From Clostridia bacterium (lineage in GTDB: Bacteria > Bacillota > Clostridia > Oscillospirales > CAG-272): a stretch of 64,000 bases of DNA. Of the stretch, positions 3,924 through 36,753 are shown piece after piece. The stretch is taken from the NCBI GenBank assembly GCA_017451735.1, contig JAFTNU010000001.1:11156-75155 (forward strand), in the 5' to 3' direction. The translations under genes were made by a program, and so were the position numbers. Position 1 is the first letter of the stretch; each line of letters starts with the position of its first letter. Under the pieces are notes generated by a model, which saw nothing but the letters and a program-made list of their open reading frames with translations, was not told the origin of the DNA and did not search any database.

Positions 3924-4028
3924 AAAATGAAAGGGATGCAAGGTCCTCTCTTTTGTTACCGTTGAGTGATGTTACAAAAAGCACGCCCCGTTGTTGTATT
4001 TTTGCAACAACGGGGCGTGTTTTGCCGT

Positions 4029-5146: not shown

Positions 5147-5884
5147 ATGGCACTGCTGTACATCGGAACATCCCCCAAGCTCTTCACCTATTACGGCGCC
5201 CATCGGCACGGGTGCTATGAGGTCATCCTGAATCTGGAGGGGGAGGGGACGATAACCATCGGGCATGAAACCTTTGACTTTTTTCCGGGGAGCGTTCACG
5301 TTGTTCCGCCCGATACGTCCCATATCAAGGCCTCGCGGGAGAGCTTCCGCGACATCTATTTTCATACCGATACCCTGTCGCCGTCAAATATTCCGCTCAG
5401 CTTTTGTGACGACAGCCGAGGCACCCTGGAGCAGGTGATGCGGCTGATGCTTTGCCGCTATTTGCAGGGGAACAAAAACGATGCCGTTCTGACAAAAATG
5501 TATGAGCTGGCCATGGAGCTGGTGAAGGAGGGCACACCCGCCGTGCGGTACGATCCCGCCGTGCAGGCATGCATACAGCGATTGACGCTTTCCTTTAATG
5601 ATCCGGAGTTGTCGGTGGCCCGGCTATTGACCGATATGGGCTACAGCAGAGATCATCTTCGCCGCAAATTTGTTGCCGACCTGGGGGTAACGCCCAATGC
5701 TTATCTCACCGCCCTGCGGATCGATCATGCCAAAAAGCTGCTGACACAGCGGGAGCTGGGGCTGTCTGTGGCCGATGTGGGCGCTATGTGCGGTTATTAC
5801 GATGCCCGCTACTTTTCCCGTGTCTTTAAGCGCGAAACGGGGTTCTCTCCTGTGGAATATGCAAAAAAATCTGCAGAAAAATAA
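5147..5884 (+). CDS. AraC-family transcriptional regulator (cupin sensor plus HTH_18)
   Basis: Strong RBS AAGGAGGTG. N-terminal cupin-like HRHGCYEVILNLEGEG. C-terminal AraC HTH (GYSRDHLRRKF..GVTPNAYLTALRI..A..LL, YFSRVFKRETGFSP). Confidence 0.85.
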   Translation: MALLYIGTSPKLFTYYGAHRHGCYEVILNLEGEGTITIGHETFDFFPGSVHVVPPDTSHIKASRESFRDIYFHTDTLSPSNIPLSFCDDSRGTLEQVMRLMLCRYLQGNKNDAVLTKMYELAMELVKEGTPAVRYDPAVQACIQRLTLSFNDPELSVARLLTDMGYSRDHLRRKFVADLGVTPNAYLTALRIDHAKKLLTQRELGLSVADVGAMCGYYDARYFSRVFKRETGFSPVEYAKKSAEK

Positions 5885-12450: not shown

Positions 12451-14010
12451 TCAAAAATTCCAATGAATTTCGAGGGGTACGTTTCGTGTGCCCGGAATGC
12501 GCTTTCCGACCATTATTTTGTCGATCAAAATCTCCACCATTTCCCGTGTCAGATGCTCTACCTTGACGTATTTTTCGATCAGCTCACGGCGGTTGTCACC
12601 CACGGCAATTTTGACGTCGATCTCGGCAATTTGTTTTTGGCATTCGAGAACCTGCGATTCAAGGCGTTCTTTTTGCGAAGTGAAGTCCTTTGATAGCTCG
12701 ATGAAGTCAGCTTCACAAATCAAGCCCTTTACTTTGTCAAGATAGAGGTCGCGCACACCTTTGGAAAACTGATTGATCTTTCCTTGATAGGTTGTAATTT
12801 CGGCTTCGATTTCTTGCTTTTGCTCCAAGAGATCAGCATGAAACTGCACCTTGCGTTCCAACTCATCCATATCAAGATACTCGGCGTTGAGTCGCCTCAA
12901 CTCCGCGATGACCATCCGTTCAAGCCTATCCACCGAGATAAACGCGCCCACGCAAGCTCCCTTGGCGTAGTGTCGGCTGGGGCATTGCAGAAAGTGCCTT
13001 CCGCCCGACTTTGACGAGCGCATGACATACCCGCAGGATGCGCAACGCACTTTCTTGGCGAAAAGACCGATCGTGCCAACCTTGAACGGCTTTGCCCGTT
13101 CAGCTATCATCCTTTGCACTCGATCCCACAAGGCGCGATCAATGATGGGTTCGTGCGTACCTTCCACCCGAAACCATTGCTCCTTTGGGCGCGGTCGGTT
13201 GATCGAGGTTTTGTAGGAAATGCTCTCGTACTTGCCCTGAACGAGATTGCCGATGTAGGTCTCGTTGGTCAGCATATCCGAAATGGCGAAATACTTCCAC
13301 AGCGTACTGTTCTTGCTCGGCGGCAGACTGAACCTGAGCCCCTGCATCCGCTTGTACTCGGTGGGGTTGGGGATCCCTCGGTCATTGAGCATTCGCGCGA
13401 TTGCCGTCTTGCCATAGCCCTGCGAAAAAAGAGTAAACACCTCTCGCACCACGGCGGCTGCTTCCTCGTCGATAATGAGATGCCCTTTCAGGTCGGGATC
13501 CTTTTTGTATCCGTAGAGCGCAAAGGAACCGATGTGAAAGCCGTTTTTGCGGCGGCTGTCCAGCGCGGATTTGATGCTGTCCGACATATCCTCCAAGTAC
13601 CACTCGTTGACAAGTCCGTTGATCTGACGGCTTTTTTTGTTGCCCTTGTTGGCGGTGTCGGCGTTGTCCACGATGCTGACGAAACGAATACCCCAGATCG
13701 GAAAAAGACCGTGTATGTATCGCTCGACTAATTCAAGCTCACGGGTAAAACGGGATTGTGTTTTGCACAGAATAATATCAAATTTTCTCGCCTGTGCGTC
13801 AGCAAGTAACCGCTTGAACTCGGGACGGTTTCTATCCGAGCCTGCATAATCGTCGTCGCTGTAAATGCCGTAAAGCTCCCAGCCCATGCGGTCGGCGTAG
13901 TCGCGGAGCATCGCCTTTTGGTTCTGAATGCTACCCGAATCGTCGGTGGCGTTCTGCTTGTTTTTGTCCTCCTCGGACAGTCTGCAATAGATTGCTACTT
14001 TTTCTCTCAT
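12451..14010 (-). CDS. Large serine recombinase (element A)
   Basis: N-terminal resolvase domain with catalytic-Ser context VAIYCRLSEED. Recombinase domain, Zn-ribbon (CASCGY..LQCPSRHYAKGAC) and C-terminal coiled coil. RBS GGAGGAG. Confidence 0.9.
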   Translation of the reverse strand: MREKVAIYCRLSEEDKNKQNATDDSGSIQNQKAMLRDYADRMGWELYGIYSDDDYAGSDRNRPEFKRLLADAQARKFDIILCKTQSRFTRELELVERYIHGLFPIWGIRFVSIVDNADTANKGNKKSRQINGLVNEWYLEDMSDSIKSALDSRRKNGFHIGSFALYGYKKDPDLKGHLIIDEEAAAVVREVFTLFSQGYGKTAIARMLNDRGIPNPTEYKRMQGLRFSLPPSKNSTLWKYFAISDMLTNETYIGNLVQGKYESISYKTSINRPRPKEQWFRVEGTHEPIIDRALWDRVQRMIAERAKPFKVGTIGLFAKKVRCASCGYVMRSSKSGGRHFLQCPSRHYAKGACVGAFISVDRLERMVIAELRRLNAEYLDMDELERKVQFHADLLEQKQEIEAEITTYQGKINQFSKGVRDLYLDKVKGLICEADFIELSKDFTSQKERLESQVLECQKQIAEIDVKIAVGDNRRELIEKYVKVEHLTREMVEILIDKIMVGKRIPGTRNVPLEIHWNF

Positions 14011-14057: not shown

Positions 14058-14087
14058 ATTATACCACAGACTGCCCTTGTTTGTCAT
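14058..14087 (-). promoter_or_regulatory. Promoter candidate for the element A recombinase
   Basis: Minus strand reads ATGACA, 18-nt spacer, TATAAT preceded by TGG. The spacer contains GGGCAGTCT, the motif shared with the dispersed repeats. Confidence 0.4.
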
Positions 14088-14218
14088 GAACTTGGAGTAA
14101 AATTTACACTTTTTCTGCGTTCTAACGTTGAGATCAGTTCTATCCATATACGCGTGTAATCCTCCTTCGTCAGTTCTTTTTTCTTGAAAACACTTATAAC
14201 GTGTGATTGCTTTTCCAT
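14084..14218 (-). CDS. Small hypothetical protein (44 aa) upstream of the recombinase
   Basis: AAAGGAG RBS 6 nt before the ATG. MEKQSHVISVFKKKELTKEDYTRIWIELISTLERRKSVNFTPSS. Below the ORF-track size cutoff and no homology recognised. Confidence 0.3.
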   Translation of the reverse strand: MEKQSHVISVFKKKELTKEDYTRIWIELISTLERRKSVNFTPSS

Positions 14219-14324: not shown

Positions 14325-14517
14325 CGGCGAAACTCCGCCAACTTTTTGCCTATTTTGTGCCATTTCATTTTCACCCAAAAAAGCGAAAAAACTATTGACA
14401 AACGGGACATGATAAAAACTAACTCATAAGTTACTAATTCGTGATACAGTTATTTGCAAGGAAAGGAGATTTGTAATGTTGCTTACCCTTGACGACATCT
14501 ATCGCAAATAAAGCACA

Positions 14518-14565
14518 GAGGTCACGCAACCGAAAGGACGGAAGCGTGACCTCATTTTGATTTGT
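14518..14565 (+). terminator. Hairpin terminator candidate
   Basis: 10-bp perfect stem GAGGTCACGC / GCGTGACCTC followed by ATTTTGATTT. Confidence 0.45.
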
Positions 14566-14640
14566 GTGAGCATGATAGACGTCGTGGGACGCAGTGTGTA
14601 ATTTCGAAATCGTGGTATGTCAACCGACGTATCTTGCAAG

Positions 14641-14762
14641 AATTGTGAAGACTGCCCGGGGTGGCTTGTATAATGTGGAAGAATTACGAAATTACGCACT
14701 GCACGAGCCTCTCTCATGCGTAATTTGAAACAGCCCCACCGCCGAAAGTCCTTATTTTACAA
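14641..14762 (+). repeat. Dispersed hairpin-repeat module, copy 1
   Basis: AATTGTGAAGACTGCCCGGGG. Stem AAATTACGCA/TGCGTAATTT with an 18-nt loop carrying CTCTCT at loop positions 11-16. Ends in CCTTATTTTACAA. Confidence 0.7.
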
Positions 14763-14785
14763 GGGCTTTTGATGGCAAACAAAAG

Positions 14786-14842
14786 AAAAAACATGGGTAC
14801 TTTTCAAAGCTGATTTTTGCTCGAAAAATACCCATGTTTTTT
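14786..14842. terminator. Long bidirectional terminator hairpin (repeat copy a)
   Basis: AAAAACATGGGTACTTTT .. AAAATACCCATGTTTTTT. Nearly identical to 16567-16622. Confidence 0.6.
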
Positions 14843-14849
14843 GATTACT

Positions 14850-15971
14850 TTAGTCGTATTGAACTGGGATGCAACGACGGTGTTCCTGTCTGATTCTGCG
14901 ATTGATCGAATCAAAATCAAGGGGATGCCACCATGCGCTCCTCACCCATTCCGAGATCCATTCGTGGTCGGGATGGTCAGGATCGTTCAGGATTTTCATC
15001 TTCTCGTCAAACCCATACGGTCCGCCGCTGTCCTCCATCGGCGCGTCGCCAATCGCCTCGGTGCAGTGTGGGTACGGGGTAGTGCAGTCGGAAATAAAAC
15101 GCTTCAACTTTATCGTATGTATCCAACCGTCCCCGAAATCGTATTCATAGTCGATCTTCTTTTGCACTTCGAAAATTTCACGAACGGTAACCGTCGTGCT
15201 GTCAATGCTTTCAAGATTTTCGTCAAGCGCAAGCCAATCTTCGTTTTTCATAAATTCGGGCTGTATAATTTTCATCGGTCTGCCCATACTGTCCTTTTTC
15301 AAAACAAACTGATGCAGATGGCAATCGTGCCACTCAAATGCGTCTTGCAAAATCCTGTGAAGCTGATAGAAATTGAGATTGCTCGGAACGACCAATGTTC
15401 TCTTGCAGGGAGTAAGCAGATCAAGCGTGACTTCAAGCTCTGCCACGCGAGCAGATTGCACGGGGGTGCCGTATTTTTCGGTAAGCGCCGTGATCAGATT
15501 CTCATAGATAAACGAATAGTCATCCTTGGCAATCATATCGTCGTTGATCCACGGCAGATATTTCTCTTGAAGCATACTGTCAGATTCAAACAGATTCACA
15601 AAACGCTCTACTCGCTCGCACGCCTTGTTGCAATATGCAACGTCAGACCGAGACGCAGTTGTTGCAAATGTTAAGTCCTTCCCACATTCGTCAAGATATC
15701 TTTCTATAATCTCGGGAGCAATATACTCACTTTGCAATACCGCGCGAATACCGTCTTTCATCAGCGCGGGCATTTTGGCAATACTTTTTGCCGTTAGTCC
15801 GTGAAGCACGAAACAACATTTGGTCGCGTTGTTTACCGCAACCAACGTCTTGCGGCGATTCAGTATGATAAGATTCGCCGTCCAAAAAAACAGCGGGTCA
15901 CTCTCGGTAGTTAATTTTTGTGGCTTCACTGCCAAAAAGCCAAGCAGCTTTTTTGTACATCCTATAACCAT
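14850..15971 (-). CDS. pRiA4b ORF-3-like (MM3350-like) domain protein
   Basis: YEYDFGDGWIHTIKL is the hallmark DFGDxWxH motif. ATG at 15971 follows GGAAGGAGAG and the promoter at 16007-16034. Confidence 0.7.
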   Translation of the reverse strand: MVIGCTKKLLGFLAVKPQKLTTESDPLFFWTANLIILNRRKTLVAVNNATKCCFVLHGLTAKSIAKMPALMKDGIRAVLQSEYIAPEIIERYLDECGKDLTFATTASRSDVAYCNKACERVERFVNLFESDSMLQEKYLPWINDDMIAKDDYSFIYENLITALTEKYGTPVQSARVAELEVTLDLLTPCKRTLVVPSNLNFYQLHRILQDAFEWHDCHLHQFVLKKDSMGRPMKIIQPEFMKNEDWLALDENLESIDSTTVTVREIFEVQKKIDYEYDFGDGWIHTIKLKRFISDCTTPYPHCTEAIGDAPMEDSGGPYGFDEKMKILNDPDHPDHEWISEWVRSAWWHPLDFDSINRRIRQEHRRCIPVQYD

Positions 15972-16006
15972 CTTGCTCTCCTTCCTCGCACTCACTTCTA
16001 TAATAC

Positions 16007-16034
16007 ATTATATCACATTTTCGGAAAATTTCAA
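16007..16034 (-). promoter_or_regulatory. Promoter candidate for the pRiA4b-like gene
   Basis: Minus strand reads TTGAAA, 16-nt spacer, TGA-TATAAT (extended -10). Confidence 0.5.
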
Positions 16035-16116
16035 TAGGAACAACGGAATGAGCATAGGCATTTTTATCATAGCAATTTCGCTCCATACTAATTCCGAAAA
16101 GAGCAAAAGTTGTGTA

Positions 16117-16200
16117 AATTGCGAAGACTGCCCGAGGACTCGCGTAAAATGGAGAACGCGCGAAATTGCGCCACATAGACTGCTCTCTTTGGCGTAACTT
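16117..16200 (+). repeat. Dispersed hairpin-repeat module, copy 2
   Basis: AATTGCGAAGACTGCCCGAGG. Stem AAATTGCGCC/GGCGTAACTT (one wobble, one mismatch). 18-nt loop with CTCTCT at positions 11-16. Confidence 0.65.
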
Positions 16201-16421
16201 TTGAGCGATAACCTCTTGAATGCTTTGAAAAAACAAGACTTTTCCGCGAGATTTTTTATGTAATAAGAGTGCTTGATTTTAAGGCGGTTTTTACATAAAA
16301 AATTTCTCGTATTTAGGGAGCGTTATGGGCTTTGTCGTGCATTTTAGATATGGCGTAGAATTCGAATAGGTATGTATTCACCATAGCAATTCCACTCAAT
16401 ACTCGTTTTCCAAACGGTAAG

Positions 16422-16505
16422 AATTGTGAAGACTGCCCGGGGCGGAAGGAAAAAGGCAATCGTTGCGAAATTGCGTTATAATGAAGACTCTCTCTAACGC
16501 AATTT
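16422..16505 (+). repeat. Dispersed hairpin-repeat module, copy 3
   Basis: AATTGTGAAGACTGCCCGGGG. Stem AAATTGCGTT/AACGCAATTT. 18-nt loop with CTCTCT at positions 11-16. Confidence 0.7.
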
Positions 16506-16566
16506 TAGAAACGCTGAGTTTGAAAAAGTCAAGTAACATAAGGAATTATGCTTATTTTTAATTATC

Positions 16567-16622
16567 AAAAACAAGGGTACTTTTTGAGAGCGTTTTTTGC
16601 GCAAAAAATACCCATGTTTTTT
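16567..16622. terminator. Long bidirectional terminator hairpin (repeat copy b)
   Basis: AAAAACAAGGGTACTTTTT .. AAAAAATACCCATGTTTTTT. Confidence 0.6.
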
Positions 16623-16632
16623 AATGCGGATA

Positions 16633-16661
16633 TTGACAAACGTTATAACATTTGGTATAAT
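16633..16661 (+). promoter_or_regulatory. Consensus sigma-A promoter
   Basis: TTGACA, 17-nt spacer, TATAAT. About 40 nt upstream of the 16701 start. Confidence 0.65.
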
Positions 16662-16700
16662 AAAAATAATAAAACTTGTTATACAAAGCGGAGGCATAAA

Positions 16701-17564
16701 ATGCAAAAGCTAATCAAGAGAATAAGAGAATATTTGGGGCTGAGCCAAGCCGACTTCGCTGAGAAGCTGGGCGTGACCTTTGCGACCATTAACCGTTGGG
16801 AAAACGGTCGCGCAATTCCCACGAAGCTGGCGCAGGCAACCCTTTATGAATACTGCAAGGCACAAGGCGTTCCCGTTTACGATATGATCCTCGATAAGAT
16901 CAGAGCAACGACCGAAGAAATCGCACTTGAAGAAGGTCGCGTCCTTCTCTACCACGGCTCAAAATCGGGCATCGTTGGCGACATCGCACCCAAGAGCCGC
17001 GAGATGTGTGACTTCGGCAAGGGCTTCTATATGGGAACTGAGCCCGGACAACCGCTGACTCTGATATGCGATTTTGAAAAATCCAAGTTCTATATCGTGT
17101 CGATTGATACGCAAGAGCTTGATGCCATTGAGATCAAAGCCGACCTCGATTGGGCAATGCTTGTTGCATTCCACCGTGGCAGAATGGCGCAGATCAAGGG
17201 TACGGAGTTCTACAGCAAATACAGTCAACTTGATGCAGGCAAGGATCTCATAATCGGAAGCATCGCAAACGACAGAATGTTCTACGTGCTCGATAACTTC
17301 TTCACCGGCGGCATCACGGATATGGCACTCGTCAATAGCCTCTCTGCCCTCAAACTCGGAAAGCAGTACGTGGCGACCACCGAAAAGGCGTGTGCAGCCG
17401 TTCGCATTGAGAAGGAGCTCCCCATCTCCATGATGGAGCGCAGATTCCTTCAGGACGAAAGCGAAGCCAACCGACAGAAAGGAATACACCTTGCAAACGA
17501 TATTTGCAAGAACTATCGCCGTGAAGGAAAGTTCTTTGACGAAATACTTGACGAAGCAAAATAA
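16701..17564 (+). CDS. XRE-type HTH fused to a DUF3990-like domain
   Basis: RBS GCGGAGG. N-terminal HTH (LGLSQADFAEKLGVTFATINRWENGR). The C-terminal LYHGSKSG..DFGKGFYMG pattern is recalled as DUF3990. Confidence 0.65.
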   Translation: MQKLIKRIREYLGLSQADFAEKLGVTFATINRWENGRAIPTKLAQATLYEYCKAQGVPVYDMILDKIRATTEEIALEEGRVLLYHGSKSGIVGDIAPKSREMCDFGKGFYMGTEPGQPLTLICDFEKSKFYIVSIDTQELDAIEIKADLDWAMLVAFHRGRMAQIKGTEFYSKYSQLDAGKDLIIGSIANDRMFYVLDNFFTGGITDMALVNSLSALKLGKQYVATTEKACAAVRIEKELPISMMERRFLQDESEANRQKGIHLANDICKNYRREGKFFDEILDEAK

Positions 17565-17576
17565 CAGGAGGACACA

Positions 17577-17993
17577 ATGAACGAACTCCAACTGAAAATG
17601 TGTGATATACAAGGCAGACTTTTCGAGCTGTCAGGCGCGAGCGGTTACGATAGCGTGACATTCATCAAGGCGTTTATGACGAGCGAGGTCGCCAAAGGAC
17701 TTGATTCCAAGTTCAACCGCATGCAATGGGCTGGCGAAGAATATCTTCTCGCTGAGATCGCCGATAACGCCGAGCTCACCAAGGGCGGCACCGTGTACGA
17801 TAAAGAGGTGCTCTATTGGGCAGGCTACCTCTACCGCTTCTGGCACTTCGCCACAGGTGAGGATAGCAAAGATATCTACCGCCAAGCCCCTGCCGAAACC
17901 ATGAGCCGCAATTGGCTTATCTTCCACACCCTCGCCCCCGAAGTGGCAATTGAGGATCTGAAAGAGATTTATAGGCAGAAAAACGAAAAGTAA
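17577..17993 (+). CDS. Hypothetical protein (138 aa)
   Basis: Tightly linked downstream of the HTH-DUF3990 gene. No motif recognised. Confidence 0.55.
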   Translation: MNELQLKMCDIQGRLFELSGASGYDSVTFIKAFMTSEVAKGLDSKFNRMQWAGEEYLLAEIADNAELTKGGTVYDKEVLYWAGYLYRFWHFATGEDSKDIYRQAPAETMSRNWLIFHTLAPEVAIEDLKEIYRQKNEK

Positions 17994-18007
17994 GATGGGA
18001 GGCAAAT

Positions 18008-19090
18008 ATGTCAGATAAGAATTGGCAATTTGAACTTGAAGAATATATAAAACAGGGTGAGCCCGGAAAAACAGAAAAAAGTGATGCATGGCGAACAGCC
18101 ATCGGTCTTCAAGCGGTAGACGGGCTGACTACCTCGGAATATCTTCTCGATACTGCGAAGGAGCATATCGAGGGTAACATCAGTATCGACGAGGCGCAAA
18201 AGCGCATTCAAAGCTACTATGAGCAACGTACCGAGCGCACCGAAATCGAAGATGCGATCAAGGAAGCCGATATCGTTTCCGCAAGAATCGCAAAGCTCCT
18301 CGGCGAAAAGAGTTTTCAGTTTTCGCCTGCGGAGTGGATGACCATTCACCGCAGACTGTTCGAGGGCGTATTCAAGCACGCAGGTCAGGTCAGACCATAC
18401 AACATCACCAAGAAGGAATGGGTGCTGAACGGCGACACGGTCATCTATGCGGATTTCAACAGCATCCGTGATACTTTGGATTACGACTTCGCAACCGAAA
18501 AACAGTTCTCATACGAGGGGTTGTCCGTAGAAGCAGCCGTTAAACACCTTGCAAAATTTGCATCGGACATCTGGCAGATCCATCCCTTCTGCGAGGGCAA
18601 CACGAGAGCGACTGCCGTCTTTATGATCAAATATATGAAAACATTCGGTTTCCGCGTAAATAACGATGCTTTCCAAAAGAATTCGTGGTATTTCCGCAAT
18701 GCGCTTGTAAGAGCGAACTACAACAATTTGCAAAAAGGCATTCATTCCACAACGAAATTTTTGGAAATGTTCTTCGACAATCTCCTCTTGGAAACCAATC
18801 ACGAGTTGAGAAACAGATATATGCATGTGGATTACGTGGCTGAAAATGATTTCCAAAGTATCATTTCCAAAGCTCCAAAGTCTCAATTTGATACTTTGGA
18901 CTGCACTTTGGAAGAATTGGCGGTGCTGGAATTGGTAGCAAAAAATCCAATGATAAAACAGCAAGAGCTTGCCGATGCCACGGGAAAATCTATCGCCACC
19001 ATCAAACGCGTGATGAAATCCCTGCAAGACAAGAACTATATCCGCCGCGAAAGCGGAAAACGCTACGGCAAATGGGAAGTTTTAGTATAA
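18008..19090 (+). CDS. Fic-family protein with C-terminal winged-helix domain
   Basis: Fic motif HPFCEGNTRATAVF (HxFx[DE]GN[GT]R). C-terminal MarR-like wHTH (ELADATGKSIATIKRVMKSLQDKNYIRR). Confidence 0.8.
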   Translation: MSDKNWQFELEEYIKQGEPGKTEKSDAWRTAIGLQAVDGLTTSEYLLDTAKEHIEGNISIDEAQKRIQSYYEQRTERTEIEDAIKEADIVSARIAKLLGEKSFQFSPAEWMTIHRRLFEGVFKHAGQVRPYNITKKEWVLNGDTVIYADFNSIRDTLDYDFATEKQFSYEGLSVEAAVKHLAKFASDIWQIHPFCEGNTRATAVFMIKYMKTFGFRVNNDAFQKNSWYFRNALVRANYNNLQKGIHSTTKFLEMFFDNLLLETNHELRNRYMHVDYVAENDFQSIISKAPKSQFDTLDCTLEELAVLELVAKNPMIKQQELADATGKSIATIKRVMKSLQDKNYIRRESGKRYGKWEVLV

Positions 19091-19109
19091 TATGAAAGAG
19101 GAAACAAAA

Positions 19110-19949
19110 ATGGCTATCAGTAAAAAACTTGAAATTATATATCACAACGGTCAGCCCGATGGAATTCGATCCATTCGCAGACATCTCTCCACGATGACAA
19201 CCTATGTTATTCCTCGTCCTCTGCTGTCGGAAGCAAAGAAACTTTCCAGAATCAACCGCCCCGGAATCTACTATCTGATCAGCGAGAATGACGATAACAA
19301 AATCGCTCAGATTTATATCGGTCAGACGAGAAATGGCGTTGTTCGCCTTGATGATCATAATCGTTCAAAGGACTTTTGGAATAAAGCAATTATGTTCTTG
19401 GCAGATAACAAAACATTCTCTCTTGATATGATAAGCGGTCTTGAAGCTTATGCCATCGGCAAGGCTCACGACTCCAAGCGCTACAAAGTGGAAAATTCGG
19501 TCAATCCCAAGTATGAGATTGATGAATATGATCTCCCTTTAATCGAGGAGGTTTACGAAGAAATTCAATTCATCATGGCAACGCAGGGCTACAAGATGGA
19601 TAACTCCAAAACAACCCTAAATGAAGCTAATACGTTACATACCACTCGCAACGGAATTCTTGCTTTTGGTGTTTACGACGGTGAGAATTTTGAGGTTTTG
19701 GAAGGCTCGGAAATCGATATGAACCGTAGATGCCATTCGGCAACGATAGAAAAACAACGCCAAACAGCTCTCGCAAACGGCAATATTGTTTGCATTGACG
19801 GAAAATACAAATTAAATGTTTCTGTATCCTTCACCTCTCCCAGCTCTGCTGCTATGTTTGCTTTGGGCGGCAGTACAAATGGTTGGGTTGAATGGAAAGA
19901 CAAAGACGGAAAAACGCTGGACGAGATTTATAGAAAACAATTCAACTGA
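19110..19949 (+). CDS. GIY-YIG nuclease domain protein with DUF4357-like C-terminus
   Basis: PGIYYLISEN..IYIGQT (GIY..YIG). C-terminal FTSPSSAAMFALGGSTNGWVEWK resembles DUF4357. ATG at 19110 follows AAAGAGGAAA (alternative ATG at 19092). Confidence 0.7.
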   Translation: MAISKKLEIIYHNGQPDGIRSIRRHLSTMTTYVIPRPLLSEAKKLSRINRPGIYYLISENDDNKIAQIYIGQTRNGVVRLDDHNRSKDFWNKAIMFLADNKTFSLDMISGLEAYAIGKAHDSKRYKVENSVNPKYEIDEYDLPLIEEVYEEIQFIMATQGYKMDNSKTTLNEANTLHTTRNGILAFGVYDGENFEVLEGSEIDMNRRCHSATIEKQRQTALANGNIVCIDGKYKLNVSVSFTSPSSAAMFALGGSTNGWVEWKDKDGKTLDEIYRKQFN

Positions 19950-19980
19950 CAATATTTCAAGTTACATAAAGGGGTAAAAG

Positions 19981-22545
19981 ATGTCTATCAGATTATGGCC
20001 GCAAGACTTTGAACGTAAAGATCATATTACAAAAGCCGAAAAGGCTCTTTTGAGGTATGCTTCTCGCAACTTTCAGAATGGTCATATGGTGATAGGTATT
20101 GACCCTGTAGGATTAAGTACCGATAAAGTTAGAATGGGAATGTATATTTCACCTAACGAGGGGCTTGTTACATTCTCGATATATACAGGTAGCATTAATG
20201 CCTTATTAATCCCTCACTATATCAGTTATGTTGAAATGGTCGAGGCGAAAATACACGAGCGCCTTTTGGATTCTAAAATGTTGATCGTTAGAAATGGGCA
20301 AAATAAGGCTCTCAAATTTCCTTATAAACACATTATAATTTTTGCGGATGAAACTGCTGGAAAAACTACTCTCTCATCGCAAGATCTTAATAAATTGTTG
20401 CACTATGCTACCTTTGAATCCTTTAGACCGATTACATCTCAAGGCAAGGAAAAAAGAATTGAAGACTTGATGGTATTCGGAGGAATTAGGAAAGCGTACG
20501 ACAAAACATTCAAGTCTTTGTCTGATTCGGAATGCAGAGCGATATTTGAACGTTTGGCGGAAGAATACACCGTCGTAATGAATGAAACCGAAAACGTTAA
20601 AATTACCGAAAAGAAAGCTCTTGTTACAGAAAAAGATCTTCGAATAACCGGTCGAGAGGTGGAATACAAGACCTTTTTCCTTGATGAATATCAGGTCGGT
20701 GTCGTTAACGATATGGGTAAAGGACATCGTGTAATCCTTGCGAACCCTGGGGCTGGAAAGAGTGTATTGTTATTGTCGAAAGCTTTCAAATACGCGAGCC
20801 TTTATAAAGGTTCCAATGTCTTGTTGACTTGCTATAATAACAATTTGGCAGATTCTTATAATTTTAAGCGTAACTGCGCGAATTTTGGCGAAAATAATAA
20901 TTTGTTTATTATGACTTTCCATAAACTCGTCAAAAAGATTTATGAGGAATGTCTCCATTCGCACTGTGAAACCAACATAGCAACTGATGAAGAGATTCAA
21001 AAGTGCATAGATTTGGTGAAACAAGGAAAGGTTAATCTTAAATTTAAGGCAATTTTCATAGATGAAGTTCAAATTTTTGATCCTCTCTACCTTGAATTGT
21101 GCTATAGCTTACTTGAAGAAGACGAAGATCGAGTTTTCTTGATGGCCGGCGACTTGAATCAGGCTGTTCGAGCGTTGAGCCGAAAAGGAGATGCACCGTG
21201 GAAACGAATGAACGGTGTCCATTTGGACTTTACTGGGCGCGTTCGTTACATTGAAAAAAACTATAGAAACAGTAAGGAAATCGGCGAATACATTTCTCAT
21301 ATGTTACAGCATATGAACACTCGCCTCTCAATGTTGGATTTGATCAATTCACTTGAATATGAGTATAACTCATTTAAGATAGGTACAAATCCAACAATAG
21401 CATTGAAAGTTCAAACCGGAGTTCAAAGAATAGATATAAAAAAGCAAGTAATTGCAGCTATTAAAGAAATCTCCACAAAATACAAAATCAGTTATTCGGA
21501 AATCGCTGTGCTTTTCCCGTTCAGAAAGGTTCCTTATCACAAATATCACTTCCTGTATTGGCTTCAGCAAGGACTTGACGAAGAAGGAATCCCTTATTCG
21601 ATGATTATTAACGAACATGAAGGAAGTCATGTTAAGGTGAGACAAGGGGATATTTCCGGAGTGGTTGTATCTACTATTGAATCTTCGCTCGGACTGGACT
21701 TTAAGGCTGTTATTTTAGCAGGTCTATACCCCTATAGCTATGTCAATGTGGATGGCGAGGTTGTCGGGGATATCAAAACATGGACCAGCATTAAGAATAT
21801 GCCTGACAATCAACAAACTGCTGTCCAAAGCCAAATGCGAGCTGTATATACTGCGTGTTCAAGAGCTCGAGATGTGTTGTATGTTATAAGTGATTTGAAA
21901 CCCGGTTCTCCTATGGAAGAGATCATAAAGAAGCAATCTGACAGGAACAGTGTATCAACATCAACTGTACGCATGTCGCCAACACCTGCCAAGGCCAACA
22001 GCAATACCAGCTCAAGAACGGCAGGCAACAATTCTTTTACAACAACTAAAGAGTATTTAGTACAAGAGGTCACTGACCACGTTACGGTTCAGGCAACGAT
22101 TCAAGAGTCTAAAAAGCCTACTACTATTACTGTTGATGTTGCAAAATACCCGAAGCAGAAAAGCATTATTGGAAAAAAGGTCGGGGAAACATTTAAGTTT
22201 GTGGGTATTCCCTTAACCTACAAAATAGATAAAATCATTTCTTCCGAACCGCCTAAGTTTGATAAAGGACCTACGATATCAACAAAGCCTATAGAAGCTA
22301 AGCCTGCTGTAAAAAATTCTTCACCAACTGAGAAAAAGCTTTCACTAAAAGAATATTTTGAAAGCAAAGGCTTTTTCACTATAGACTGTCGCGGATGGAA
22401 CGGATGTCTTTGGGTTCTTGGCGATCAAAAGAAATTAGAGCCGTATGTAACAGAAGCAAAACGATTATATGGAGCAACTGGTGCGTATGGTTCGGGTAAA
22501 CAAACCAACTATAAACCTGCATGGTGGACAAAATCGAACAAATAA
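19981..22545 (+). CDS. UvrD/SF1-type helicase with N- and C-terminal extensions
   Basis: Walker A NPGAGKSVLL, Walker B FIDEVQIFD. UvrD_C-like STIESSLGLDFKAVIL and YTACSRARDVLYV. A low-complexity linker then a small C-terminal domain. Confidence 0.75.
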   Translation: MSIRLWPQDFERKDHITKAEKALLRYASRNFQNGHMVIGIDPVGLSTDKVRMGMYISPNEGLVTFSIYTGSINALLIPHYISYVEMVEAKIHERLLDSKMLIVRNGQNKALKFPYKHIIIFADETAGKTTLSSQDLNKLLHYATFESFRPITSQGKEKRIEDLMVFGGIRKAYDKTFKSLSDSECRAIFERLAEEYTVVMNETENVKITEKKALVTEKDLRITGREVEYKTFFLDEYQVGVVNDMGKGHRVILANPGAGKSVLLLSKAFKYASLYKGSNVLLTCYNNNLADSYNFKRNCANFGENNNLFIMTFHKLVKKIYEECLHSHCETNIATDEEIQKCIDLVKQGKVNLKFKAIFIDEVQIFDPLYLELCYSLLEEDEDRVFLMAGDLNQAVRALSRKGDAPWKRMNGVHLDFTGRVRYIEKNYRNSKEIGEYISHMLQHMNTRLSMLDLINSLEYEYNSFKIGTNPTIALKVQTGVQRIDIKKQVIAAIKEISTKYKISYSEIAVLFPFRKVPYHKYHFLYWLQQGLDEEGIPYSMIINEHEGSHVKVRQGDISGVVVSTIESSLGLDFKAVILAGLYPYSYVNVDGEVVGDIKTWTSIKNMPDNQQTAVQSQMRAVYTACSRARDVLYVISDLKPGSPMEEIIKKQSDRNSVSTSTVRMSPTPAKANSNTSSRTAGNNSFTTTKEYLVQEVTDHVTVQATIQESKKPTTITVDVAKYPKQKSIIGKKVGETFKFVGIPLTYKIDKIISSEPPKFDKGPTISTKPIEAKPAVKNSSPTEKKLSLKEYFESKGFFTIDCRGWNGCLWVLGDQKKLEPYVTEAKRLYGATGAYGSGKQTNYKPAWWTKSNK

Positions 22546-22580
22546 ACAACAATCTTGGTACTCAACAGGAGGATCATCAT

Positions 22581-25500
22581 ATGGCAAATAATTATAACAT
22601 TTTAGCAGATTACATAGTATCCAAATACATCGAAAGAATCTCCGGAGAAGATATTGCGGAGACTTTTGTAGATGATTCTCCTGCTGATCGTGTTATGGTC
22701 GGTATGTTAGCCGAAAACAGAATGGAGCAGCGATTTGACGGTGGATACGCAGAAAATAGTACCACTCGTTTCGAAAGCGTTCCGTCTATAAGCGTTTCTT
22801 TTGCTGTGAAAAAGAATCCGTTGGGTATGCTTAAGGTTGTTCCAAAAGGTCTCCTGTTTTATACAGTAGAACCTGACTATGATAAGACAGTTGCTTTTTT
22901 GATACAAAAGTATTCTGAAAAGGATAACGTTCGATATACCAACATTCAGCAACTTTGCGATGCCCACCCCGAAGACAAGTTCTATCTTCCTTTGACATAT
23001 AAAAAAATCAAGATCGAAGATGAAATGAAAGGTGGAATATCTGTACCGCTAATATCTCTTCAAGAATCCAAATTTCATTTGGAACAACAGATAAACGAAC
23101 GCCTTTCTGAACTTGCCGATAAAATTAGCAACGAGATTAAGGTGATAAAAAGTGATCGCGTATCTTTGTTTGACTTGGTGGATAAAGAACGCTTTTATCT
23201 GGTGACTGGTGGAAGCGAAGAGCCTGTATATCCTCGTTGGATTATCGATATCTATTGTACGGTTATTGACGAGGGGGACTCCTACCACTTCTTGATGCAG
23301 ATGGTTAATAAGACCCCTGTAAACGGAAAAAGCAATATTGGCTATCTGCCTAAAGTATTCAATGCCGGGATGGATATCATCGGCAACAGAGCTGTTAAGT
23401 TCAAAAATATAGATTTGGACTACTTCAAAAGCAGTTACAAATCTCGTTCTTTGGTATATGCTGTTGCAGAAAACACATCTGCTTCTCACTGCCCCGAAGA
23501 TAATGCTATACGTACTGACAATATTCCTCGGTACTACCAAAAGCGCTTGAAAACCAAAGACGGATTAACCGAATATGTTAAATTTGAAAAGCTTATTCAA
23601 GATCCTGTTGGCAATTTGAATTGCATTTACAGAGAGATGAAGGCTGATTACGAACAATGTTCTAACGAATTTAACACTACAAGATTTCCCAGTGCTGTCG
23701 CAAAAGATAAATTCAGAACAGCGTTGGAGGAATATGGTCGCGAAATAGCTCGTTTCAAAAAAGGCATAGAACAAATTGAATATAAGGATTATGTTAAAAA
23801 GGCTTTTGTTTGTATGAACAAAACCTTTATGACAAAACTTTCTGGTGAGCATAGACAAATTAGCGGTTGGCGTTTGTTTCAGATCGTATTTATAGTCTCT
23901 TTGATTTGTGAAATGATCAGAAGTGAATATAAGAATGACAGGACCATCGCTGAAGCTGATATAGAAATGGCAAATCTTTTGTATTTTCCCACAGGTGGTG
24001 GTAAGACAGAAGCTTTTCTTGGTGCATGCGTTTTCAATATGTTTTTTGATCGCTTACGCGGCAAAAACGAAGGAATTACTGCTTTTCTTAAATATCCCTT
24101 GAGATTGCTTGCAGTACAGCAGTTAGATCGTGTACTGACAATTGTTATGAAGGCAAATGTTGTACGCGAATCTATTCCCGAGCTTGCTCACAAGACACCG
24201 TTCCAAGTAGGATTTTTTGTTGGAAAAGGAAATACACCTAACAAGATTGATGCTTATGAGCGTTTGAGCGAACGCGGAGAAAAGAATAAATCGAAAGATC
24301 TTATTCTTGAAAGCGATCAGGAAACCCTGAACGATTATTATCGCTTCATCGATACTTGTCCCTTCTGCGGTAAGAAAGAGGTTAATCTTCGTTTTAATCA
24401 AGACAATTGGAAATTGGAGCATGTTTGCGACAACCCCGAGTGCCCCATCAATGTGCTCCCCTTGATGATTGTCGATAATGAAATATATCGATACTTGCCC
24501 TCTATTGTAGTTAGCACAATAGATAAAATGGCTATGCTTGGTACAAGCAACGATTTCAAGATGCTGTTTGGTCAAGTAAAGAAAAAATGCCCCGTGCATG
24601 GATTTACAAGCACTTCAAGATGTTCTTGCTCCGCTTGTAATAACAATTCTCTTGAGAATGTAGGATTGCTGAAGGATCCTATCCCCACTTTATTTATTCA
24701 AGACGAAATGCACTTGGTAAAAGAGAGTTTGGGAACATTTGATGCGCACTATGAGTCTTTTTTGAGTTATTATGCCAAAGAACTTGTTCCGGAAGCTCAT
24801 CGTAAACTTATTCGCTTTGTGGGTGCAACCGCGACAATTTCCATGTATGAAGCTCACATATGGAATTTGTATCACATGGAGGGACGCCGGTTCCCGTGTG
24901 AATATCCTTCTGCTAAATCCGGAGAGGATTTTTATTCGTATACCGATGAAAACGACATAACTCGTATATTGATCGGCTATGCACCTTACGGAAGGTCTAT
25001 CACAGATGGAATGTGGGAATCCGTATATATTATGAGGCTCATTGTCTACAGAATGATTCAATTCATAGATGAGAGTTATGCAGCTCTATGTGATGCAGGA
25101 TTTGTTGGCAGCATCGATGAGTACAAGGAAATGCTATATGATTATTGGATCGAATTGGTTTACAACAACCGCAAGCAAGATGCAATGGAACTCGAAAATG
25201 CATTTCAAAACCAGGCTAACAACTATTTGGAAGCCAAGGGCGTTCCAAAATATGTTATAGAGCAAATGACCAGTGATGTGGATTTTCAAACGGTAAGAAA
25301 AACATTGTTTGATATCCATGCAAACAGAAGAAATTTTGATAGTACCAACTTGCTATTGGCAACAAGTACGATCTCACATGGTGTAGACGAGGATTCCTTC
25401 AACATTATGTATTTCTTTGGTATGCCCAACAATAACGCAGAGTATATTCAAGCATATTCTCGTACCGGACGTAAACATACGGGTATAGTCGTTGATATTA

Positions 25501-25979
25501 TCCGTTTGATGCGAGTACGTGACCGCTCATACTTGAAGAATTTTGTGATTTTCCATCAAAACCGAGACGACTTGGTTGAAGCCGTTCCGATTAATCGTTG
25601 GGCGAAGAATGCTATTTATAGCACATTACCGGGATTGCTGTCCGGATTGATTAGGCAACACTATACAATCATTACAGGCACCGATAGCTTGCATCAGGCT
25701 ATAAAAGTGCAAAAGCTGTTGCGTTCTGAAGATATTGATATTGACGACGTTATGTCGAAGCTGATTAATGCATATGGCTGCAACAACCAAGAAAAGATGT
25801 CGCTTGCGTACAAAGAAATTATAGCTGAAGAAACGAACAACATCCTTTCCGGACTTAAAAATGGCAACTTCACAAATGAATTTTCTCTTTCTGACGCTAT
25901 TGGAAAATTCTCACGCGGCAAGAAAACGCCTATGACAAGCTTGCGCGATACAGAAGAACAGATTGAGATAAAGATCTGA
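22581..25979 (+). CDS. DrmA-like DExH (SF2) helicase
   Basis: ATG at 22581 follows GGAGGA. Motif I FPTGGGKTEAF, motif II FIQDEMHLV, motifs V/VI TSTISHGVDE..QAYSRTGR. Internal Zn-ribbon CPFCGKK..CDNPECP. About 1130 aa and followed by a DUF1998-like gene, as in DISARM. Confidence 0.65.
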   Translation: MANNYNILADYIVSKYIERISGEDIAETFVDDSPADRVMVGMLAENRMEQRFDGGYAENSTTRFESVPSISVSFAVKKNPLGMLKVVPKGLLFYTVEPDYDKTVAFLIQKYSEKDNVRYTNIQQLCDAHPEDKFYLPLTYKKIKIEDEMKGGISVPLISLQESKFHLEQQINERLSELADKISNEIKVIKSDRVSLFDLVDKERFYLVTGGSEEPVYPRWIIDIYCTVIDEGDSYHFLMQMVNKTPVNGKSNIGYLPKVFNAGMDIIGNRAVKFKNIDLDYFKSSYKSRSLVYAVAENTSASHCPEDNAIRTDNIPRYYQKRLKTKDGLTEYVKFEKLIQDPVGNLNCIYREMKADYEQCSNEFNTTRFPSAVAKDKFRTALEEYGREIARFKKGIEQIEYKDYVKKAFVCMNKTFMTKLSGEHRQISGWRLFQIVFIVSLICEMIRSEYKNDRTIAEADIEMANLLYFPTGGGKTEAFLGACVFNMFFDRLRGKNEGITAFLKYPLRLLAVQQLDRVLTIVMKANVVRESIPELAHKTPFQVGFFVGKGNTPNKIDAYERLSERGEKNKSKDLILESDQETLNDYYRFIDTCPFCGKKEVNLRFNQDNWKLEHVCDNPECPINVLPLMIVDNEIYRYLPSIVVSTIDKMAMLGTSNDFKMLFGQVKKKCPVHGFTSTSRCSCSACNNNSLENVGLLKDPIPTLFIQDEMHLVKESLGTFDAHYESFLSYYAKELVPEAHRKLIRFVGATATISMYEAHIWNLYHMEGRRFPCEYPSAKSGEDFYSYTDENDITRILIGYAPYGRSITDGMWESVYIMRLIVYRMIQFIDESYAALCDAGFVGSIDEYKEMLYDYWIELVYNNRKQDAMELENAFQNQANNYLEAKGVPKYVIEQMTSDVDFQTVRKTLFDIHANRRNFDSTNLLLATSTISHGVDEDSFNIMYFFGMPNNNAEYIQAYSRTGRKHTGIVVDIIRLMRVRDRSYLKNFVIFHQNRDDLVEAVPINRWAKNAIYSTLPGLLSGLIRQHYTIITGTDSLHQAIKVQKLLRSEDIDIDDVMSKLINAYGCNNQEKMSLAYKEIIAEETNNILSGLKNGNFTNEFSLSDAIGKFSRGKKTPMTSLRDTEEQIEIKI

Positions 25980-25991
25980 GGTGAGAAAAAA

Positions 25992-27902
25992 ATGAAAAGA
26001 AGTAAAACACAAGCGGTATACAGATTTTTACCCGATATGTGGATATCTGAAAAAGGTGATTCTGATCGTGCCATTTCTGCAAGGATCAAGAATTGGAACT
26101 ATATCAAGATGTCCGACATCTATGAAGACTTTATCGAGGAAGAAATAAAGCGTCAAATAAAGTTGTTTGGGGATCGCGGAGGCGATATTAGTGCATTCGA
26201 TATCACTCATGGTACGCACACCTTTTCGGTTGTAGAAACTGCATGTAATGAAGGCATTCCGGATATTATTGGCGAAATGTCGCCATTGGTGTTCTATTGC
26301 AGCTCGTGCGGAACGGTTTTTGATGTTAGAAATCCATCGGATGTAGATAAGTATACTTGGAAATGTAAGGAATGTGGTAAATGGGCCGTAAAACAGCTCC
26401 AGATGATTTATGCATGCGAATGTGGTCATGCACAGCCCATTAAAATTCCCTATGTACCAGGCGTTAAAGATTTTAAGTATCGCCCCAATGAAACACAGTA
26501 TAAAATGTTTTATAAAAGCGGTCTCGCTGACAAGCCTGCAGAATTTGTGCTACCATGCCCTACGTGCAATTCAAGACTTGTTCCTGACAACGCAAATTCC
26601 GGACGGAATTACAAGCCTTTTACTCTGAGAGTAATAAATTTGGTGGATGAACGTTGTGGACGGTTTTATAAAAAGGGCTTGGACGCTCAAAAAACGATCG
26701 TATCGCGTTGGTTTGATAAGATATCGGCTGAAGACTACGAAGAGATTCTAAACAATATCGATTTGGCATTCAGCGATGCATTTAGAAGCGATGCCCAGCG
26801 GCTTCAGTTCGAACAACAGGTACGTTCTTTAATAGATATCGGTTTAATACCGGCAGACCAGTTCGAAAGCGCTGTTAATAAGCTCATGCAGGATAATCCT
26901 AACACAAAAAGCGTTGAAACATATGTTGCACAGTGCGATGATTTGTTTGCAAAGAGAAAAGCAGAGGACCCCGTTGGGTATACAGAGTGGCTCGGTCATT
27001 TTTCTTTCAAATTGATGCAATACGATACTCTTAAGTATGCGAAGAGAATTGTAACTTTGGAGGAAGCAATTCTGCGCCAGCTTGAAATGGAGTTTATTGA
27101 TTCCGCTGATGAGGTGCATGAGTTGAACGCCAAGTTAGGAATCAAAAATATGCAAGTTTCTTGCGATATTCAAATCCTTAACTGCACCTATGGCTATACT
27201 CGAAGAAGCGCTGATCCTAAGATTGCTTCCAACAACAACTCCCGTTGTAGATTAAAGCTCAATGCCTATGACAAAACACGTGACGGAACTGCAAATCTTG
27301 TGTACGGTGCAAAATTGGATACAGAGGGTATCCTTTTTGAAATTGATCGAAGAAAAATCATTGAGTGGCTGCATGATAATGATATTATCCTTGAAGAGCA
27401 ACTACCGGACCTTGACGATGAAGTATCCGTAAAAAAATGGTTTGCGGAGTATGTTCATAGCGATGTAATTTCTATGTTTGGAGAAATTGATGAAAGCGAA
27501 GTCATCACAAAGAATGTTTTTGCATTGCTCCATTCAATGTCACATGCATTTATGAATGCAGCCGGCGAATTAAGTGGTCTTTCCAGTAATTCCTTGACAG
27601 AAATAATCATTGTCGAAACGGCAAGCATATTCATTTATGCTCAGACCAGCCAAGGCATCCCTCTTGGTGCATTGTCTGGTATGGCTGAAACCAACTACGC
27701 TTATTTCTTGAAAAAAGCATTTGATGAAACCAAGAATTGTGTGTTTGATCCGATTTGTACGGAAAGAGACGATACTGCTTGTAGCGCTTGTTTAATCATT
27801 CCGGAGATATCGTGCAATCACTTTAACGCAGAACTTGGAAGAAAATATCTGTATTCAATAGACGGTGCTGAAACACCAACTATTGGTTTTTGGGAGATGT
27901 AA
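25992..27902 (+). CDS. DUF1998-like (DrmB-like) protein
   Basis: C-terminal Cys cluster CVFDPICTERDDTACSACLIIPEISCNHFNAELGRKYL resembles the DUF1998 Zn motif. N-terminal CxxC pairs are present. It immediately follows the DExH helicase. Confidence 0.6.
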   Translation: MKRSKTQAVYRFLPDMWISEKGDSDRAISARIKNWNYIKMSDIYEDFIEEEIKRQIKLFGDRGGDISAFDITHGTHTFSVVETACNEGIPDIIGEMSPLVFYCSSCGTVFDVRNPSDVDKYTWKCKECGKWAVKQLQMIYACECGHAQPIKIPYVPGVKDFKYRPNETQYKMFYKSGLADKPAEFVLPCPTCNSRLVPDNANSGRNYKPFTLRVINLVDERCGRFYKKGLDAQKTIVSRWFDKISAEDYEEILNNIDLAFSDAFRSDAQRLQFEQQVRSLIDIGLIPADQFESAVNKLMQDNPNTKSVETYVAQCDDLFAKRKAEDPVGYTEWLGHFSFKLMQYDTLKYAKRIVTLEEAILRQLEMEFIDSADEVHELNAKLGIKNMQVSCDIQILNCTYGYTRRSADPKIASNNNSRCRLKLNAYDKTRDGTANLVYGAKLDTEGILFEIDRRKIIEWLHDNDIILEEQLPDLDDEVSVKKWFAEYVHSDVISMFGEIDESEVITKNVFALLHSMSHAFMNAAGELSGLSSNSLTEIIIVETASIFIYAQTSQGIPLGALSGMAETNYAYFLKKAFDETKNCVFDPICTERDDTACSACLIIPEISCNHFNAELGRKYLYSIDGAETPTIGFWEM

Positions 27903-27904
27903 TT

Positions 27905-36645: not shown

Positions 36646-36753
36646 AGGGCTCCTCCTTTTTTGGAATAAATAAAAATAGAGCGAAGTCACGCAGACTCCG
36701 CTCCGCAAAAAGAATGTGCAAAAGCACTCTTTTTTCTATGTGCGGTTATTATA

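Follow-up and report, generated by a model that had tools for sequence, protein, structure and literature searches.

Firmicutes encode families of sibling small RNAs (sRNAs) with C/U-rich loops, such as LhrC1-5 of Listeria, the csRNAs of streptococci, and RsaE/RoxS. Other structured RNAs act in cis, including the phage antiterminator RNAs putL and putR of HK022 and the EAR element of Bacillus. We investigated a set of repeats that shares features with both groups and lies in a 64,000-nucleotide (nt) stretch of DNA from a Clostridia bacterium (GenBank assembly GCA_017451735.1, contig JAFTNU010000001.1, positions 11,156 to 75,155 of the forward strand; this whole stretch is referred to as the window). 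The repeats are non-coding modules, or units, of ~240-270 nt, and several copies are present in one mobile element, a skin-like island within the sporulation gene cotJC that we call element A. We found that a hairpin (P2) and a 21-nt box in these units are under purifying selection and that the repeats are a real, structurally constrained non-coding family. Most likely, they represent a new RNA family of narrow distribution that is a member of no described family.

Like the LhrC and csRNA sRNAs, the units occur in several paralogous copies per genome, some in tandem and with their own intrinsic terminators, and the pyrimidines of their apical loop would allow pairing with purine-rich ribosome-binding sites. 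Unlike these sRNAs, the units are longer, contain a switch domain made of an upstream segment (seg1), the box, and a second segment (seg2), sit on a mobile element, and have no promoter that we could find. They also have no sequence or model match to LhrC: the sole LhrC match scored 23 bits against a gathering threshold of 110 and falls on an upstream terminator, not on a unit.

The host element has its own relatives. Intervening elements split several sporulation genes, as described for skin in sigK, SPbeta in spsM, and gin in gerE in the abstracts of the corresponding papers (PMC4191935, PMC5595907, PMC5025042). As in the systems described there, the gene is split, a large serine recombinase lies at the end of the element beside a gene fragment, and a small upstream open reading frame (ORF) occupies the position of the directionality factor. 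Unlike in those systems as outlined there, the target is cotJC, which is interrupted twice in the window, and the cargo is a defense island. The abstracts of these papers make no mention of repeated structured non-coding modules. In Clostridioides difficile, overexpression of the sRNA RCd1 lowers the levels of the directionality factor CD1234 and of spoIIID, and also reduces skin excision (PMC8583004). Our case would be similar in tying a small RNA to a sporulation-gene intervening element, whereas RCd1 is chromosomal and unrelated in sequence (PMC8583004).

Each unit is proposed to consist, in order, of seg1, usually the 21-nt box, seg2, which could pair in two ways, and a strong intrinsic terminator. 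A repeat finder and a pattern scan place the box, AATTG[TC]GAAGACTGCCCG[GA]GG (AATTGYGAAGACTGCCCGRGG), at three positions, all on the + strand, as the original prediction had stated: 14641-14661 in unit t1 and 16422-16442 in unit t3, both reading AATTGTGAAGACTGCCCGGGG, and 16117-16137 in unit t2 (AATTGCGAAGACTGCCCGAGG). When up to two mismatches were allowed, the box core pattern had five matches in the window against 0.17 expected. The box has no dyad symmetry apart from CCCGGG, and its core, GAAGACTGC, resembles the core of the P2 loop (GAAGMCTC, TAGACTGC or GAAGCCTGC). About ten related elements from ruminant-gut Clostridia supply further unit types. We refer to units by type (t1 to t5) and, outside the window, by locus (L024, L036, and so on).

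P2 begins 23-27 nt after the box in all three copies, and each copy has the predicted 10-base pair (bp) stem, a loop of exactly 18 nt, and CTCTCT at loop positions 11-16. The + strand hairpins lie at 14689-14726 in t1 (arms 14689-14698, AAATTACGCA, and 14717-14726, TGCGTAATTT; CTCTCT at 14709-14714), at 16163-16200 in t2 (arms 16163-16172, AAATTGCGCC, and 16191-16200, GGCGTAACTT; loop ACATAGACTGCTCTCTTT), and at 16468-16505 in t3 (arms 16468-16477, AAATTGCGTT, and 16496-16505, AACGCAATTT; loop ATAATGAAGACTCTCTCT). The t2 stem has one A.C mismatch and one G.T pair. We scored P2 in 15 units of four types, using 500 shuffles and shifted registers as controls. P2 is 97.3% paired in this set, and six of its ten pairs are altered on both sides. 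None of the 500 shuffles matched the observed values for the double-change measures, whether counted as pairs or as cells, and pairing fell to 23-40% when the register was slid. Individual changes can be followed through the family. The closing pair of the t1 hairpin is A-T in most units, G.T in L056, and G-C in L066; the t3 hairpin of L036 has an A-T to T-A double change, with G.T in the t3 units of L024 and L033; and t2 and t4 differ by TT/AA to CC/GG plus two repairs of non-standard pairs. The initial observation that the stems differ yet stay complementary thus extends to new unit types and to orthologues.

That the two arms covary, with G.T intermediates, points to base pairing and away from a protein site on duplex DNA. 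This bears on the alternative that the units work as DNA, serving a regulator encoded by the element as operators or promoter elements, or acting as homology patches for cassette swapping: sites bound by one protein would be expected to retain their sequence and not covary in this way. Some observations do point to DNA. Units lie at the borders of variable cassettes (a t2/t3 hybrid in L066, an extra t4 in L036, and a t4 deletion in L033), and the three units of L024 have one seg1 variant in common, AGCAATTTTG, suggestive of gene conversion. Moreover, a -10-like hexamer (TATAAT, TAAAAT, TAAAGT, or GAAAAT) stands at a fixed distance past the box in t1 of the window and in five of five t2 copies; other t1 orthologues have TGTAAC or TGCAAC at this position. 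However, this hexamer lies 20-21 bp from any TTG-type -35, 18 bp separate the inverted repeats, the symmetry of the box does not go beyond the CCCGGG noted above, and the action of the serine recombinase is required at the cotJC junctions, away from the units. We consider a DNA-level role very unlikely.

Conservation among orthologues follows the same parts of the unit. Identity is 0.91-0.99 in the box and 0.80-1.0 in the hairpin arms, compared with 0.52-0.88 in the spacers within units and 0.88-0.90 in flanking coding sequence; the t1 box is 98.8% identical across orthologues, and its neighboring spacers are 72-86% identical. The units could in principle be drifting, non-functional remnants of segmental duplication, and their narrow distribution and the decayed or rearranged state of several copies would fit such an origin. 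However, the spacers of paralogues are near random while the box, the loop length, and the pairing are kept, the box and stems are more conserved than the spacers and on par with coding sequence, and compensating changes have occurred repeatedly. We therefore disfavor drift and regard it as highly improbable. The units are also not protein genes, as had been anticipated: no reading frame is stop-free in all of them, and in the sole frame that is locally open, the compensating changes of the stem alter the encoded amino acids. Small protein genes were rejected as an identity for lack of a shared frame; the tiny ORF at 14477-14512 lacks a conserved ATG and represents the tail end of a DUF234 ATPase gene that was otherwise deleted.

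Seg2 contains the 5' arm of P2, and it also pairs with seg1, which lies at a near-constant 74-82 nt upstream. We call this long-range helix P1. In t1, seg1 (14591-14610, + strand) and 14683-14702 form a 20-nt inverted repeat that is 90% complementary, and in t2, 16072-16081 (GCAATTTCGC, + strand) pairs with 16160-16169. These pairings agree with the original prediction, which described an upstream segment complementary to the 5' arm and able to form an alternative structure. In t3, seg1 is AGCAATTCCAC (16385-16395, + strand). In t1, t2, and t4, P1 has a better duplex energy than shuffled upstream sequence (p 0.003-0.02; 0.003 for t1 and 0.017 for t2). Both partners of seg2 in t4 are wholly different in sequence from those of the other types and still pair with it, which is the best evidence that P1 is real.

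P1 and P2 are mutually exclusive because both use seg2. When either helix was forced, the two folds were 0 to 3 kcal/mol apart in four of seven units (t1 of L066, t2 of the window, and t2 and t4 of L036). P1 is favored by about 10 kcal/mol in t1 of the window, a third fold is preferred by 7 kcal/mol in t3 of L036, and t3 of the window folds with P2 outright. RNAalifold also pairs seg1 with the box itself; this pairing shows no covariation because the box hardly varies. The same program pairs the box with the spacer after it, and this hairpin is supported within type t1 only. An anti-terminator formed by the downstream terminator with the loop or with seg3, the 3' arm of P2, was rejected, as such pairing occurs in single copies only and is lost in orthologues.

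Every unit is closed by a hairpin and a T-run, and each element has three to four units. Unit t1 ends in a strong two-way terminator hairpin at 14787-14845, with an A-run, a stem, and a T-run, that could serve either strand. It also lies at the 3' end of the convergent PRiA4 gene (DUF6933 plus PRiA4_ORF3; 14850-15971, - strand), which has t1 on its convergent side and t2 on its divergent side, and it is 96% identical across orthologues. L066 has the same t1/PRiA4/t2 arrangement. Unit t3 ends in a terminator hairpin for either strand at 16567-16625, detected by the repeat finder. The terminators of t1 and t3 are 59 nt each and 81% identical, in keeping with the similarity first noticed between them. 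The long A+T-rich hairpin that closes t2 (16245-16309, + strand, from an inverted-repeat finder) contains the motif TTTTTACATAAAAAAT, which also terminates t5 units (L068 and 33500-33550 of the window).

A degenerate fourth copy had been proposed at 33215-33478. The copy exists, as a unit of type t5 on the + strand, in rearranged form: its box, AAAGACTGCCGGGGG (33215-33229), has two mismatches, and its hairpin lies ~180 nt beyond the box at 33408-33443 (arms 33408-33417, ATTTGCGGCA, and 33434-33443, TGCCGTAAAA; 16-nt loop TATTGTAAGCCTGCGT). The hairpin is a weak match to our covariance model, at 33409-33442, and the unit is most like that of L068.

We tentatively favor the reading that the units are paralogous structured regulatory RNAs, each with a P1/P2 switch, a pyrimidine-rich display loop, and its own terminator; we would place this at a little less than an even chance. 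The non-coding RNA reading put forward at the outset fits the evidence best. It builds on the existence of the repeat family, selection on the box and stem, covariation of P2, the pairing of P1, the lack of a shared ORF, the terminators, and the presence of units in RNA-derived assemblies. What it says about strand, promoters, trans action, and loop function is inferred. Mutual exclusion of P1 and P2 would make each unit a conformational switch. In one state, seg2 would pair back with seg1 and close a ~75-nt domain around the box; in the other, it would pair forward with seg3 to form the 10-bp hairpin, presenting an 18-nt loop whose core is GAAGMCU and which, in most types, also contains CUCUCU. 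Anything that binds or stabilizes the box/P1 domain could then determine whether the loop is displayed on a hairpin or is single-stranded. The loop, which resembles an anti-Shine-Dalgarno sequence, would be the likely effector that touches a target RNA or protein.

The units are likely transcribed. Four gut metatranscriptome runs contain related sequence, and their unstranded assemblies cover t1, t2, and part of t3. One 303-nt contig spans 14519-14822 at a depth of 12, with zero depth just upstream, and some contigs extend into PRiA4 or across the promoter of the gene encoding a helix-turn-helix (HTH)-DUF3990 protein. Transcription probably proceeds on the + strand, in the direction of the HTH-DUF3990 and defense-gene operon. 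Non-Watson-Crick pairs are mostly G.U when read on this strand, and P2 is as stable or more stable on it in 14 of 15 units (-120 versus -104 kcal/mol when summed). The exception is t2 of L066, in which P2 is 0.2 kcal/mol better on the - strand.

Several findings weigh against regulatory RNAs of this kind. P1 is weak in t3 (p=0.66 in the window and 0.07-0.13 in orthologues), and it has a single clearly covarying pair within the main alignment. Much of the covariation in the family derives from comparing paralogues, because the family is confined to one element lineage. Its defining features are not universal either: t4 lacks the box, and CUCUCU, present in the loops of t1 to t4, is missing from that of t5. 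Units also decay, as in the internally deleted t4 of L033, the two mismatches in the t2 stem of L066, and the split fourth copy. We found no convincing sigma-70 promoter upstream of seg1 in any unit, and a search by eye for sigma-70, extracytoplasmic function (ECF), sigma-54, sigma-H, and sporulation-sigma promoters revealed nothing consistent across unit types. What the regions upstream of seg1 contain is a shared rGTATGr motif and one weak predicted promoter site at 16332-16361. Loop and box duplexes with 18 start regions of two elements were no better than those of shuffled probes, and complementarity of the units to the mRNAs of the putative directionality factor or the recombinase did not exceed chance. 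Finally, the metatranscriptome contigs are unstranded and may include DNA carry-over, and in run X23 the depth is unbroken from PRiA4 coding sequence through 14787-14845 and ends at the base of P2 (~14690). This profile fits a 3' untranslated region (UTR) of PRiA4 on the - strand as well as a + strand RNA.

In another explanation, the units are transcription insulators, stacks of hairpins and terminators that block read-through between cassettes on either strand. Specifically, t1 would be the PRiA4 3' UTR and would prevent transcription from the PRiA4 promoter from entering the - strand genes for the putative directionality factor and the recombinase. PRiA4, a 44-amino acid (aa) ORF, and the recombinase do follow one another on the - strand with t1 in between, the terminators are flanked on either side by A-runs and T-runs, and terminator hairpins covary too. 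Metatranscriptome depth from PRiA4 ends at the P2 base in X23, halves there in X22, and ends at the base of the 14518-14553 hairpin in X21. However, insulation leaves the near-invariant 21-nt box, the conserved loop of fixed length, and the pairing of seg1 unexplained. No - strand gene that would need a terminator lies upstream of t2, t3, or t5, the G.U pairs favor the + strand, and P2, with its modest stability (-5 to -10 kcal/mol) and 18-nt loop, would be a poor terminator. Insulators are therefore an unlikely account of the family.

A further possibility is that the units are cis-acting leaders, similar to riboswitches or to elements of processive antitermination, that gate + strand passage of a terminator into the HTH-DUF3990/defense operon. 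Like riboswitch and attenuator leaders, they have mutually exclusive helices that share one strand, at near-equal energies in the four of seven units given above, and P1 closes a conserved core with a 3' strand common to the alternative hairpin. A terminator follows every unit, all units face the cargo operon, and t2, t4 where present, and t3 stand in tandem directly upstream of it. RNA contigs cross a t3-type terminator into the HTH promoter region. Like putL/putR and EAR, the units are multiple structured copies in the same orientation on a mobile element, each ahead of a terminator. Yet they have no sequence or structural similarity to those RNAs, and an action on RNA polymerase is unsupported. 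Unlike in known leaders, the switch is not directly coupled to a regulated ORF or a terminator. P2 is not the terminator and does not hide the ribosome-binding site of a gene directly downstream, and neither seg3 nor the loop pairs consistently with the terminator. A perfect consensus promoter for the HTH-DUF3990 gene (16633-16661) lies directly 3' of the t3 terminator, between unit and gene, so read-through is not needed. Moreover, t1 faces a convergent gene, t4 lacks the conserved core, and no Rfam riboswitch or leader matches the units. We regard leaders as quite improbable.

The family is found in one narrow lineage of elements. Had no covarying homologues been found elsewhere, the original prediction would have been undermined; they do exist, within this lineage. 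Box pattern scans identified true homologues in only five loci of Clostridia metagenome-assembled genomes (L024, L032, L033, L036, and L037), all from ruminant guts and representing the window's element at 87-91% identity, and in one metagenome contig. Other matches to the box pattern were rejected as chance occurrences in GC-rich genomes. A blastn search with 14400-16700 returned no match in phage and plasmid collections. In IMG/VR, the box pattern scan detected no homologue, only coding 'NCEDCP' matches, and a terminator pattern scan gave one unrelated match. A covariance model was built from 15 units and run on further loci. It recovered the extra L036 unit of type t4 (stem AAACCGCGCC / GGCGCGGTTT, loop ATGTAGACTGCTCTCTCT, no box), two units that flank the PRiA4 gene of L066, and a divergent t5 unit upstream of HTH-DUF3990 in L068. 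In a run on 40 further loci, the model found no units beside recombinase relatives of 75-86% identity (L059-L065 and L069-L072), PRiA4 relatives of 58-71% identity (L081-L090), or HTH-DUF3990 relatives in viral contigs (L073-L080). Every element with units has a recombinase at least about 87% identical, and the silence of the model beside more distant relatives indicates that the family is confined to one element lineage. We also ran the Rfam scan that had been proposed, and the units match no Rfam family: in Rfam 15, at gathering thresholds, the only match in the whole window is a ZTP riboswitch, and a permissive scan of 14350-16700 gave sub-threshold miRNA or sRNA matches on terminator hairpins only.

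Unit content varies among these elements. L036 carries its additional t4 between t2 and t3 (4000-4300), L033 has a t4 with its middle deleted (5780-5860), and L066 has one hybrid unit with a 5' half of type t2 and a 3' half of type t3 (4200-4640). At their ends, metatranscriptome contigs from runs X21 and X23 contain a t2-type hairpin (16164-16202) in flanks unlike those of any unit fetched, so gut communities hold more unit variants.

Recombination sites had also been suggested, an idea that gained no support. The units are internal to the element, off the cotJC junctions, and have no att-type dyad symmetry. Attachment sites of the large serine recombinase were rejected, as the junctions are at ~12.38 kb and 34.83 kb and the units lie 2-4 kb inside the element. 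Integron attC-type sites were rejected as well: there is no tyrosine recombinase among the Pfam-scanned genes, and most cassette borders of the cargo operon have no unit. Pfam and PADLOC scans found no relaxase or rolling-circle genes in the element that could be a source of single-stranded DNA. The short sequence AGACTGCCC is indeed present in the spacer of the recombinase promoter, as first reported. Its proposed link to the units did not survive: this 9-mer is kept in one of three orthologues (L036) and absent from the other two (L024 and L037), and chance alone would be expected to produce a match of this length. The match is probably fortuitous.

Gene content was assigned from Pfam and PADLOC scans of the window. 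Element A is a low-GC island at about 12.38-34.83 kb (~22 kb), and the units sit in its regulatory end, among defense-gene cassettes. Its large serine recombinase (Resolvase, Recombinase, Zn ribbon, and DUF4368; 12451-14010, - strand) has a stop codon that adjoins the C-terminal piece of cotJC. The closest relatives of this recombinase are 74-97% identical, with a C-terminal fragment of manganese catalase adjoining in 8 of 11 fetched contexts, and L060, L066, and L068 have the order CotJA-CotJB-CotJC(N), element, recombinase, CotJC(C). In the window, cotJC lies in three - strand pieces that match Pfam profile positions 1-33 (55583-55476), 29-151 (35159-34827), and 147-198 (12373-12164), which indicates two skin-type intervening elements. 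Of the two elements that split this host gene, a member of the Mn catalase family, one is about 22 kb and the other about 20 kb long, and in both a gene for a large serine recombinase (12451-14010 and 35173-36708) lies directly beside the downstream cotJC piece. Close to its far end, element A also carries its own intact Mn-catalase paralogue (33890-34576, + strand), only about 31-35% identical to the host cotJC, as does L066. The riboswitch detected with Rfam is a ZMP/ZTP riboswitch (RF01750; 56326-56418, + strand; 60 bits against a gathering threshold of 39) in host DNA past the second element.

The + strand cargo includes HTH-DUF3990, Fic, and GIY-YIG/DUF4357 genes, a DISARM-like DrmA/DrmB/Dam set, and a DndB-like gene. 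The defense island spans 16701-32618, with DrmA at 22521-25979 and DrmB at 25992-27902 (DISARM-like), the Dam methylase, UvrD-type and NERD helicases, and a DndB/DpdB-like protein. PADLOC lists PDC-M13 (HTH-DUF3990), PDC-S72 (Fic), and PDC-S14 (GIY-YIG/DUF4357) as candidates in the cargo, and the N-terminus of the PRiA4 gene product matches PDC-S63. Upstream of t1, 14395-14553 is a decayed DUF234/ATPase_2 gene that is intact in L066. The remnant retains its promoter, with a spacer 5 bp shorter, its ribosome-binding site, its last ten codons (LLTLDDIYRK), and its terminator. The motif TGACAAACR occurs six times against 1.2 expected, on the - strand at 14078 and 14315 and on the + strand at 14396, 16634, 33135, and 56284. 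Four of the six are the -35 regions of promoters (recombinase, 44-aa ORF, ATPase remnant, and HTH-DUF3990), and this placement makes TGACAAACR a candidate for a -35/operator motif that these promoters have in common. The copy at 14396 is followed by an operator-like palindrome, AACTCATAAGTT. The 44-aa ORF (14084-14218, - strand) has a good ribosome-binding site just upstream of the recombinase and no Pfam match. ORFs of 44-88 aa occupy the equivalent position in 9 of 11 relative contexts, and we consider the 44-aa ORF a candidate recombination directionality factor.

Why would an intervening element carry three to four copies of such a module? If the units are regulatory RNAs, they constitute a family absent from Rfam, with a three-segment switch, inside a defense island that is excised developmentally from a spore-coat gene. 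They would also offer a handle on how toxic or costly defense genes and the excision machinery are controlled. The reach of the finding is limited to one narrow element lineage in uncultured ruminant-gut Clostridia. A more specific proposal, which we hold to be quite unlikely in this form, is that the units are RNA switches of a sporulation-gene intervening element, in which the box/P1 domain would sense a cellular or phage-derived signal and thereby set expression of defense cassettes or excision genes. If this were true, the activity of the defense island or its developmental excision would be coupled to a previously undescribed family of structured RNAs.

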